Shown here: positions 55,801 to 58,800 of the stretch, one piece after another | Numbering within the stretch: position 1 is the first letter of the stretch | How the letters are laid out: each line of letters begins with the position of its first letter | From: an uncultured Actinomycetota bacterium | Lineage (GTDB): Bacteria; Actinomycetota; Actinomycetes; Mycobacteriales; CADCTP01 | Direction: 5' to 3' | DNA length: 64,000 nt | NCBI GenBank assembly: GCA_963714145.1 | Contig: OY970235.1 | Coordinates: forward strand, 7,962,499 to 8,026,498 | The notes under the pieces: generated by a model | Databases searched by the model: none | Seen by the model: only the letters and a program-made list of their open reading frames with translations | Told to the model about the DNA's origin: nothing | Translations under genes and position numbers: made by a program

Positions 55801-58800
55801 CGCCGGTCAGGCCGGCGCGGCCAACGACACCGCGACCGCGCAGGCCAGGCGGATCCGCGACGCGTTCGAGCACTCCAGCTACAAGCCGAGCGAGGACGCG
55901 GCGGAGGCGACCAAGCAGCGCCGCGAGGCCGGGCTGTCGGCCGCCGCGTCGACCATCACCTGGGCGCACCGCAACCAGGTGGCGGCCGCCGACGCGGGCG
56001 CCGAGCTCAAGCGCACCGCGGAGCGGCTCTACCACGAGCAGCAGGACCAGGTCACCCAGCTCGGCGGCCAGGCCGCCACCGCGGTGCAGGACTGGCGGGA
56101 CCAGCGCCTCGGCGAGGAGCGCAGCTGGTGGGAACAGCAGGACGAGCGGGTGAAGGTGTGGAGCAACCAGGCCGCCGCCGACAACAAGATCTGGGAGCAG
56201 GTCCGCGACCGGGACACCGCGGCCCGCGCGCTGCGCGACGCCGACCTGATCAGCAAGATCCGTACCGCGGTGAACGATCAGAACCAGGCCGAGCTCTACA
56301 AGCTACTGTCCGGTTTGGACGGTGCACAAAGGACGGTCGCGCAGATCTGCCTGAACGGCGGGGACGTGGTCGACGCGCTGGCCGCCGGCACGCTGAGCCG
56401 GATCGCCGAGCGGCGGGTGCCGGAGCTGGCCGAGCGGCTGCGTGCCGAGGCACTCGAGCTTCCACAGTGGGCAGACCTGGAGGCGCTGGGCGCCGCGCAG
56501 AACCCCGAGTTCAACGCGACCGCCGCCGCCATCGAGGTGCACGCGGGCGTGGACGGCGCCGGCACCAAGGAAGAGAAGATCTACCACGCGCTGGGCGGCC
56601 GCACCCCGATCCAGATCCAGGCGATCAAGCTGCGCTACGCGGTGCTGTACGGCGACGACCTGTTCGCCGACGTGCACGGCGACATGGACGTCGACAACGA
56701 CGAGGGCAAGCGCGCCGACGCGCTGCTGCACTCGGACGCGGTCGGCGCCGAGGTCGCCGAGTTCCGTGACCAGATCGCCAGCGTCAACGACCTGGCCCGC
56801 ATCCTGCGCGGCAAGACACCCGAGCAGGTACGCGAGTTCCGCCGCCGGTACGAGAAGCAGTACGACGCCACGATCGAGCACGACATCAGCCACGTGCTGC
56901 TCACGCCGGCGGACCAGGCCCGGCTGAAGGCGCTGCTGGCCGGCGACACCGCGCAGGCCGACGCGATCGCGCTGGGCCAGGCCGTCCGCACCAAGGACAG
57001 CGACCGGTTCGACGGAAACGAGTTCAGCCTCCCCACCGCCTCCAGCGGCCCGTTCAACAACTACGCCGGCACCCGCAGCGAGGACAACAGCAAGGCCGCG
57101 CTGGCGGTGCTCCACCAGATCCGCGACGAGGTCGACGCCGAGGCCGCGCGCACCGGGATGACCTCGGAGGATCGGCGCCAGGAACTGCGCCGCCGGTACT
57201 CGGAGGTGCAGGCGAAGTACGGCGCGATGCTCGGCACCTCGCTGAGCGAGGCGATCCAGGACCAGCTCTCGGACGACAAGGCCGGCCAGGCCGACGCGAT
57301 GTTGGCCGGCAACGACTGGGGCGCCGACGCCTGGGCGATGCGCGACGAGCTCGACTCGTACAACATCAACTACAAGAAGGTCGGCGAGGCGGTCACCCAC
57401 GAGCGCGGCCTGGTGGAGAAGAACGCCCGCCGCGACGCCGAGGCGAAGTTCGAGGTCGAGCTGCGCACCGAGGAGTGGGGCACCGACAAGGCGGAGGTGG
57501 ACCGCCGCCGGAAGGCGATGGCCGGCGAGGTCGACGCGGCGGCCGACAAGCGCGCCGAGGCGGTCATGGGCGCGATGGGCAACGTGATCGGCGAAGACAA
57601 CATGTCCCGGCTGCAGCCGGTCAAGCCGCCGTCCGGCGGCATGGCGGCGTTCGCCATGCCGGTCCTCCCGAACCCGAACCAGGACCAGGCGGCCGCGCTG
57701 TTCGCGAAGGCCGGCAAGCTGAGCGCCGCCGAGCGGATGGACTTCGCGATCCGTCGCCGGGACGAGGACGCGATCAAGGAGGCGCTGAAGGATCCGGCCA
57801 ACTCGAGCAAGCTGCGGTCCAAGGCGGAGATGGCGACGCTGCGCGAGGAGTACCAGAAGCACACCGGCCGCAGCATGGACGCCGACCTGGACCGCGCGCT
57901 GTCCGGCCGGGCCGCGTTCGACATCGGCCTGGACGTCCGCGGCGAGCCGGCCGACGAGAAGGAGACGGTCGCCCGGCTGCGCGAGCGGCAGAAGTGGGAG
58001 ATGGACAACTCCCGCAGCAACAGCTTCCTCGACTACGCGAGTGCGGCCGCCGGCGTCTCGCCGGAACTGCGCAAGTCGATGGTGACGCCGGAGGAGCGGG
58101 CCCTCGACATCACGGTGACGGACGCCGAGCGGGCCGCCGCCGAGGTCACCGCGACCAAGAACAGCGGGGACAAGGAGCAGGCGAAGCTGGCGGAGGAGGC
58201 GCTGACCCGCCGCGTCGGCGGGGTCACCGCCGCGATCGAGGACCAGCGCCGGGCGATCGACTCCACCGCCGAGATGGCCGCCATGATCGCCGGCATCGCG
58301 GCCGGCATCATCGTCGTGGTCGCCAGCGGCGGCTCGCTGGCTCCGGGCGTGATGGCGCTTGCCGCCGCCGCGTCGACCGTGACCAGCATCGCGGTCAAGC
58401 GGACGGTGCTGGGCGAGGCGTACGGCGCCGACCAGTTCGGCAAGGACATCGCGCTGGGCGCGATCGACGTGGCCGCCGCCGTGCTGACCGCCGGCACCGC
58501 GAACTACCTGCTGCGCAGCTCCATGCTGGCCGGGGCGGTCCGGGCCGGCGGGGTCAGCCGGCTGCTTGCCACCGTCAGCGCGCAGGGCATCGAGGCCGGG
58601 CTGGCCGGTATCCCGCACGGCATCGCCGACGCGATGATGAGCGGTGCGCTGGAGTCCGACGACCCGCTCGGCACGCTGGCCCGGGCGGCCGGCATGTCCG
58701 TGCTGACCAGCGCCGCGATGGGCGGCGGGATGGCCGTCGCGCACGGCGCCGTGCACGCGGCCACCGGCCGCGGCGGCGTCACCCATGCCCCGCCGCCTGA

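Follow-up and report, generated by a model that had tools for sequence, protein, structure and literature searches.

The annexin array and its predicted fold

We analysed a 64-kb stretch of GC-rich DNA (69-78%) from an uncultured Actinomycetota bacterium (contig OY970235.1), the whole 64,000 nucleotides of which are called the window here, and in particular a giant gene within it whose product carries an array of annexin repeats. The gene is a single + strand open reading frame (ORF) of 2,810 codons, 52880-61312, with a third-position G+C content (GC3) of 0.94 across its stop-to-stop frame. A Pfam-A scan of the protein identified eCIS_core, Annexin and Ntox4. The order of its parts is a disordered N-terminus, eCIS_core/DUF4157, low-complexity and amphipathic-helical regions, five annexin repeats (R1-R5), a linker, a hydrophobic block, 39-aa repeats, a second HExxH domain and Ntox4. 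A preliminary description of the sequence had placed four to five annexin-like repeats at 56230-57960. This region lies entirely within the ORF and covers nearly the whole of the module that we delimited. The array and the parts adjoining it are listed below, with helix positions given in residue numbers of an AlphaFold2 (AF2) model of the module.

52880..61312, + strand: giant ORF encoding the whole multidomain protein (ORF list, translation)
56207..58024, + strand: annexin module overall, aa 1110-1715 (family alignment, AF2)
56207..56503, + strand: helical lead-in before the array, aa 1110-1208, conserved in homologues, not an annexin repeat (AF2 helices 2-98, predicted local distance difference test score (pLDDT) 84-92; aligned in 24 homologues)
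56516..56728, + strand: R1, aa 1213-1283, helices A-E (Pfam 38.8 bits alone, PDB alignment, AF2 helices 104-174)
56738..56938, + strand: R2, aa 1287-1353, AB loop shortened (Pfam 18.7 bits alone, colinear with annexin VI repeat 2, AF2 helices 178-244)
56948..57304, + strand: R3, aa 1357-1475, AB loop expanded and disordered (aa 1373-1397), helices B and C elongated (family alignment, AF2 helices 248-366)
57314..57706, + strand: R4, aa 1479-1609, divergent, annexin-like (hhalign over its full length, AF2 helices 370-500)
57725..57937, + strand: R5, aa 1616-1686, small beta-hairpin inserted between helices B and C (Pfam 24.9 bits alone, AF2 helices 507-577)
57938..58261, + strand: linker of about 108 aa from the array to the hydrophobic block, aa 1687-1794, with a trailing helix at aa 1693-1710 (AF2 helix 584-601)
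58262..58774, + strand: hydrophobic Gly/Ala-rich block, aa 1795-1965, a strong transmembrane (TM) hairpin at aa 1799-1839 followed by amphipathic segments (Kyte-Doolittle)

The presence of annexin repeats in the 2,810-aa protein is practically certain. The Pfam Annexin profile (PF00191) matched the whole protein with E=3.2e-18 and 66 bits (gathering cut-off 25) over three stretches. All four segments that had been singled out as annexin-like are in frame 1, at aa 1220-1269, 1305-1340, 1430-1464 and 1648-1676 (nucleotides 56537-56686, 56792-56899, 57167-57271 and 57821-57907). When each was scanned alone with PF00191, the first, second and fourth scored 38.8, 18.7 and 24.9 bits, and the third gave no match. 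Family alignment, profile-profile comparison and the AF2 model all identified this third segment as helices C-D of the third repeat. The top matches of a phmmer search against all PDB sequences were annexins only, with annexin VI at E=5.2e-13, and the alignment to annexin VI was colinear through two complete repeats, R1-R2 corresponding to annexin repeats I-II. We also aligned aa 1110-1715 with 24 homologous modules; a profile of this 25-module alignment matched annexin VI in the PDB at 1.1e-77 and annexin A5 at 5e-47. The annexin profile check that had been proposed thus yielded significant matches by Pfam, phmmer and the family profile. The E-values, together with the fold and an alignment that stays colinear over two repeats, exclude a chance annexin-like pattern in a charged helical region.

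The family consensus consisted of five units, each with helix A, an AB loop of the form GxGTDE, helix B, a helix C ending in ..Y...YG, and helices D and E; units 3 and 4 carried long insertions between helices B and C. AF2 supplied with the 25-sequence alignment returned five A-E helix units with a pLDDT of 87 and a predicted template modelling score of 0.72. The prediction from the single sequence (pLDDT 49) was unusable. When the model was compared with the PDB using Foldseek, all 50 of the matches listed were annexins, with a probability of 1.00 and E-values from 9e-8 to 7e-5. The second check that had been proposed, structure prediction, therefore also gave the five-helix annexin repeat.

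The earlier estimate of four to five repeats is right: we count five, the additional one being the divergent R4 between the third and fourth segments. In the array as a whole (aa 1213-1686), R1 and R2 are compact and canonical, R3 and R4 contain long helical insertions, and R5 is compact. The R3 AB loop had low pLDDT over model residues 264-288. In R4, helices B and C were predicted to be 33-34 aa each and to form a long hairpin, and the helix D region (aa 1583-1596) is Pro-rich and disordered here, with low pLDDT over model residues 474-487 and no modelled helix D. Comparison of the repeat sub-alignments with hhalign gave probabilities of 99.7% for R1-R2, 99.2% for R2-R5, 99.0% for R1-R5, 98.2% for R2-R3, 96.8% for R1-R3, 95.9% for R3-R4 and 93.5% for R2-R4.

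Two other arrangements were considered. A sixth repeat in the helical lead-in (aa 1110-1208) was rejected, hhalign against R1-R5 reaching at most 52% over 23 residues. A canonical tetrad in which R4 is an insertion could not be confirmed, as the global superposition was poor.

Relatives of the protein and their genomic context

We searched 1.84 billion cluster representatives (50% identity) exhaustively with HMMER, taking the annexin region only (aa 1195-1700) as the query; 417 clusters matched at E<=1e-3, 174 of them at E<=1e-10. Many relatives found in this way are 2,000-2,800 aa long and aligned across the whole 500-aa query. A word-indexed search with the 506-aa module (56462-57979) returned no matches, despite the presence in the library of an 87%-identical relative and the 417 HMMER relatives. 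This result is a limit of the search and not a lack of relatives, the candidate list having probably been swamped by low-complexity words. The exact window protein was missing from a collection of 15 billion proteins; its closest relative (L001), on a 3.3-kb contig of a Mycobacteriales metagenome-assembled genome (MAG), is 89% identical. The preliminary description had called bacterial annexins rare. This holds only in a relative sense, given the 417 clusters and the published occurrence of annexin in DUF4157/PVC (Photorhabdus virulence cassette) toxins (PMC3482391, PMC3894181). Annexin is under-recognised in the annotation of this toxin family, because relatives carry the label 'hypothetical protein' or no more than 'DUF4157/Bacterial toxin 4' and the nearest full-length one scores 25.1 bits, barely at the Pfam annexin threshold.

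We next consider what follows the array. On the Kyte-Doolittle scale over 19 residues, the hydrophobic block, for which Pfam and PDB sequence searches gave no significant match, peaks at 2.27 and 1.6, and it is free of charged residues at aa 1799-1839 and 1936-1954. Informative homologues were taken to be the 102 HMMER hits with at least 260 residues after R5. Alignment continued into the hydrophobic block, after the last repeat, in 100 of these 102, and a strongly hydrophobic 19-mer was present in 97, starting about 80-125 residues after R5 in most of them. The earlier suggestion of a membrane-binding module in front of a hydrophobic block gains strength from this conservation in nearly all informative homologues. 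Annexin was found in every one of 26 sampled members, and the terminal domains of these members varied (eCIS_core, FHA, Ntox4, Gln_deamidase_2, PT-HINT and Aspzincin_M35), the last four being the C-termini that vary across the family. A constant cassette of annexin and TM segments with variable ends is the pattern expected for a delivery or positioning module and not for a toxin domain.

The same arrangement bears on the possibility that the array is itself an effector, active in a eukaryotic target through Ca2+/phospholipid signalling, membrane repair or actin. Geller et al. placed Annexin among mostly eukaryotic domains associated with extracellular contractile injection systems (eCIS) and suggested anti-eukaryotic roles (PMC8213781), and R1-R2 have substantial identity to animal annexins. 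However, the hydrophobic block in 100/102 informative homologues and further C-terminal domains come after the array, Zhang et al. argue that the terminal toxin domain is never an annexin, the Ca2+ sites are eroded in this protein (see below), and the array occurs in many environmental lineages that have no known host. We consider such an effector role quite improbable.

The giant protein very probably belongs to the DUF4157/Ntox4 class of toxins of the contractile injection system (CIS) type. One of its two nearest relatives, P0023, has the same eCIS_core...annexin...Ntox4 layout and is encoded in a CIS locus, between a gene for an ATPase with winged-helix (WHD) and AAA domains and genes for sheath, tube, spike, PAAR and gp25. 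Two further relatives, P0011 (from a Chloroflexota MAG) and P0025, are encoded directly 3′ of the same kind of ATPase gene. P0008, a short annexin + TM homologue of 674 aa, is not in a CIS-type context.

This class is known. In the available text of their 2012 paper (PMC3482391), Zhang et al. described polymorphic toxins of the PVC-secretion type with an N-terminal PVC-metallopeptidase (now DUF4157/eCIS_core), listed Ntox4 among PVC-associated toxins, and noted annexin domains in several PVC toxins, which they proposed to help breach target membranes. The available text of Kodavali et al. 2014 (PMC3894181) reports about 34 bacterial annexins in 17 species, including Haliangium proteins that join DUF4157, annexin and Ntox3, some annexin proteins with predicted TM regions and, besides two from actinobacteria, a Corallococcus protein with five domains. 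Geller et al. 2021 (PMC8213781) made DUF4157 a core marker of eCIS, with Annexin among the eCIS-associated domains. The window protein fits the annexin-bearing PVC/eCIS toxins of the first two papers. It shares with the Haliangium ochraceum DUF4157-annexin-(TM)-Ntox3 proteins an N-terminal DUF4157, internal annexin, predicted TM segments and a C-terminal Ntox-type toxin, and differs in being actinobacterial with Ntox4 rather than myxobacterial with Ntox3. The toxin of Burkholderiales bacterium JOSHI_001 (at least three annexin domains, Pyocin_S and Colicin D) likewise has annexin repeats adjoining a predicted membrane anchor; according to the paper's description, its delivery and toxin domains are different, it lacks DUF4157, and its domains are ordered differently with respect to the toxin.

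Another comparison is with the AlgoCIS cargo proteins Cgo1 and Cgo2, which are loaded by the AAA+ ATPase Alg15. As far as the available text of the preprint goes (bioRxiv 10.64898/2026.05.27.728243), these cargos consist of a disordered N-terminal domain, DUF4157 and a variable C-terminal domain, and loading needs the N-terminal domain and not DUF4157. The window protein similarly has a hydrophilic disordered N-terminus, DUF4157 and a long variable C-terminal part, and relatives of it are encoded right after a homologous WHD+AAA ATPase gene. In contrast, the Cgo proteins are 498 and 1,228 aa long, with no annexin array or TM block described in that text, and no CIS genes are among the ORFs scanned in our window.

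The comparison with eukaryotic annexins (A5, A4 and A6; PDB 1avc, 1m9i and 1avr) showed a shared, predicted five-helix repeat of about 70 aa, R1-R2 colinear with repeats I-II, and in R1 a GxGT loop with an acidic residue 38 positions on. The bacterial array differs in having five repeats in place of four or eight, in the 30-60-aa helical insertions of R3 and R4, in a modelled arrangement that does not superpose on the annexin disc (template modelling score about 0.3), in the four repeats that lack the Ca2+ motif, and in its place inside a protein of 2,810 aa that also has a TM block and enzymatic domains. As described in the available text of the 2012 and 2014 papers, PVC-type toxins mostly have one or two recognisable annexin domains and weak tetrad signals, whereas the model here resolves five. 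Conserved annexin-to-TM spacing is documented here across about 100 clusters and was not found in the available text of either paper. What we add is therefore the five-repeat anatomy as predicted, the R3/R4 insertions, the erosion of Ca2+ sites in this branch, and the near-universal coupling of the annexin array to the hydrophobic block. These findings do not overturn current views; they extend the 2012 and 2014 proposals, and their main value is for annotation. The coupling, seen in about 100 clusters, together with the CIS ATPase neighbours provides a testable candidate for membrane handling by very large CIS-linked toxins, and the bacterial repeats are prokaryotic material for the question of annexin origin.

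We also observed, on three unrelated metagenomic or MAG contigs (L002, at 10001-17944 plus flanks, L003 and L004), a giant annexin + TM gene right after a WHD+AAA (Pvc15-like) ATPase gene. On L002, genes for sheath, tube, spike, PAAR and gp25 directly follow the giant gene. On L004, the start of the annexin gene overlaps with a 936-aa gene, perhaps a sign of a split or mis-called giant ORF.

A proposed membrane-docking role for the array

The best overall explanation is, on balance, that the annexin array is the membrane-docking part of a CIS-type toxin. The array would be the peripheral, membrane-docking part of a conserved cassette of annexin repeats plus hydrophobic block. It would bind a phospholipid surface and orient the adjacent hydrophobic hairpin for insertion, and the C-terminal toxin would thereby reach or cross a membrane, after hand-over to or release by a contractile injection system. 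Docking together with orientation of the adjacent block for insertion is the likeliest function of the array itself, and we put its chances of being right and wrong as equal.

Several observations weigh against the docking explanation. The first concerns calcium. We defined the type II Ca2+ motif as GxGT in the AB loop plus Asp or Glu 38 residues after the Thr. This motif is missing in four of the five repeats, whereas in homologues (best 150 representatives) its median number is 3 and its mode 4; in 73% of cases in these representatives, L, A or W occupies position x of GxGT. Only R1 retains an intact motif, G1226-A-G-T1229 (nucleotides 56555-56566) with D1268 (nucleotides 56681-56683). In R2 the GxGT is deleted, the GxGTDE of homologues being aligned with a gap of 6 residues, and the acidic position has gone as well. 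The GxGT loop is replaced by the long disordered insertion in R3 and deleted in R5, and in R4 the family's TDDD-type loop is degraded. The two nearest relatives, P0001 and P0023, have one Ca2+ motif each, like the window protein. Since only R1 keeps a Ca2+ site, membrane binding by the array is expected to be largely Ca2+-independent or to occur via a single site. With a canonical site in one repeat of five, the Ca2+-dependent liposome binding proposed in the preliminary description may be weak or absent.

The second concerns selection, for which we estimated the ratio of nonsynonymous to synonymous substitution rates (dN/dS) by the Nei-Gojobori method from one pair, the window protein and L001, with few sites. 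The value for all aligned codons was 0.39. It was 0.0 for the TM hairpin (aa 1795-1861), the tightest constraint in the protein, and this hairpin is under strong purifying selection. The annexin array R1-R5 was relaxed (0.51), as was R4 in particular (0.81), with R1 at 0.44, R5 at 0.34 and the linker after R5 at about 1. These ratios are inflated because high-GC3 codon bias depresses dS. The data suggest that the array is under real but relaxed constraint.

If the relaxed constraint and the missing Ca2+ motifs are given most weight, the array might be a decaying relic that has lost lipid binding in this lineage and is kept only as a helical spacer separating the N-terminal loading region from the hydrophobic block. 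This would account for the single motif in five repeats, with P0001 and P0023 likewise retaining one, for an R4 that has no helix D and a dN/dS of 0.81, and for a linker with a dN/dS of about 1. However, the values for the array, and those for R1 and R5 above all, indicate that selection still acts, the high-GC3 codon bias inflates dN/dS, and the fold is predicted with high confidence. Several eukaryotic annexins work with few or no type II sites, which also counts against decay. We regard a relic as highly improbable.

The remaining points against docking concern geometry, context and size. The Foldseek matches had target-normalised template modelling scores of 0.28-0.33 and root-mean-square deviations of 11-23 Å, the annexin cores being colinear over about 300-500 columns. 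The predicted repeat fold is that of annexins and the canonical four-repeat disc is not reproduced in the model; because the model does not superpose on this disc, annexin-like membrane geometry cannot be assumed. Among the approximately 33 likely ORFs scanned in the 64-kb window, no sheath, tube, baseplate or AAA+ loading ATPase gene was identified, these ORFs having ordinary metabolic, RiPP/NRPS-like (ribosomally synthesized and post-translationally modified peptide; nonribosomal peptide synthetase), protease and transporter functions. Among the scanned ORFs of the window, no CIS operon was found within about ten genes of the giant gene, the distance used to recognise eCIS toxins. Only 2.7 kb downstream of the gene are in the window, and a CIS locus may lie farther downstream. 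No immunity gene was recognised at 61312-62250; the sole candidate, an ORF of 171 aa, has a hydrophobic stretch at the N-terminal end, perhaps a signal peptide, and only a sub-threshold SH3_3 match. In addition, a 2,810-aa protein with very hydrophobic helices would be an awkward cargo for a tube lumen.

The strength of selection on the hairpin bears on the main rival explanation, in which the array and the block anchor the protein, and possibly a cytoplasmic CIS, to the producer's own cytoplasmic membrane and do not act on a target membrane, and the toxin serves in regulated self-killing or in firing upon contact, as in the cytoplasmic CIS of actinobacteria. A strongly hydrophobic TM hairpin under the tightest constraint in the protein would suit such an anchor, as would the absence of an evident signal peptide in the translated hydrophilic N-terminus. 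The organism is actinobacterial (GC 69-78%, closest relative in a Mycobacteriales MAG), and according to the available text of PMC12237407, Streptomyces CIS are cytoplasmic and need the membrane protein CisA. Kodavali et al. also predicted that the annexin toxin of Burkholderiales is cytosolic and anchored in the membrane. Against this, an N-terminal DUF4157 with a C-terminal toxin is the order of injected cargo, the variable C-terminal toxins favour delivery to another cell, and the protein has no similarity to CisA. We consider anchoring in the producer's membrane unlikely.

Returning to docking during delivery, a more elaborate version can be formulated, which we find doubtful when all of its parts are taken together. 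Here R1-R5, the hairpin insertions of R3 and R4, and the hydrophobic block about 100 aa downstream would form one conserved, so far unnamed, self-inserting translocation cassette, common to hundreds of giant toxins beside CIS ATPase genes across phyla. It would act like the diphtheria toxin T-domain or a colicin pore-forming domain: annexin would dock on lipid, the R3/R4 hairpins and Gly/Ala-rich helices would insert, and the variable C-terminal toxin would be carried across a membrane that the needle does not cross. The actinobacterial branch would do this independently of Ca2+.

Other parts of the protein and of the window

The remaining features of the giant protein are as follows.

aa 1-100, + strand: hydrophilic N-terminus, rich in charged, Pro and Ala residues
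53186..53416, + strand: eCIS_core/DUF4157 (PVC-metallopeptidase), aa 103-179, with HELTH at aa 168-172 (Pfam PF13699, E=2e-27)
53532..54534, + strand: Pro/Asp/Ala-rich tandem repeats (Tandem Repeats Finder)
aa 862-975, + strand: helical region with a weak apolipoprotein-like signal (Pfam scan)
58977..59492, + strand: tandem repeats of 117/99 nucleotides (39/33 aa), about 5 copies (Tandem Repeats Finder, 95% and 82% matches)
59582..60079, + strand: domain of about 170 aa with a second HExxH, H2344-E-L-A-H2348 at nucleotides 59909-59923 (motif in translation)
60914..61168, + strand: C-terminal Ntox4 toxin domain, aa 2679-2763 (Pfam PF15541, E=2.5e-13 with the whole protein and 3.7e-15 with the C-terminal fragment)

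An NCBIfam scan of the giant protein and its neighbours gave no matches. The Pro/Asp/Ala-rich repeats comprise DPDALMRP-like units of 39-45 nucleotides at 53532-53923 and PDAISGAGP-like units of 39/117 nucleotides at 54307-54534, and form a linker of about 450 aa C-terminal to the DUF4157 domain; very long linkers have been observed in DUF4157-type proteins (Geller 2021, PMC8213781). The 39/33-aa repeats, with the unit RGHADQIGGQRVRANEASGxIGNDTVL..., follow the hydrophobic block and precede the second HExxH domain. Their first copies are near-identical, which suggests recent expansion. The second HExxH domain had no significant match in Pfam or among PDB sequences, the sole hit being a sub-threshold DUF3810. 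By analogy with some of the PVC toxins of Zhang et al. 2012, this domain might serve either as a peptidase for release or as a second toxin.

Elsewhere in the window, the segment at 61483-63209, just downstream of the giant gene, contains the 171-aa ORF and, where the GC is lower (0.69), a trypsin-like serine protease; neither resembles an immunity protein. On the minus strand at 21911-29082, a TPR + CHAT-domain protein of 1,033 aa, an S8 subtilase and a weakly vWA-like protein together look like a conflict or defence system. At 8674-16920, a 1,019-aa protein with a match to the N-terminal domain of lantibiotic dehydratases is followed by two genes of the ABC-transporter ATPase/permease type, which may constitute a RiPP biosynthetic cluster, apparently unrelated to the annexin toxin. 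The segment at 41105-47707 encodes a standalone NRPS condensation-domain protein, an AIR-synthase-related protein, an alpha/beta hydrolase (lower GC, 0.69) and a nicotianamine-synthase-like protein, and may be a small-molecule or metallophore locus.

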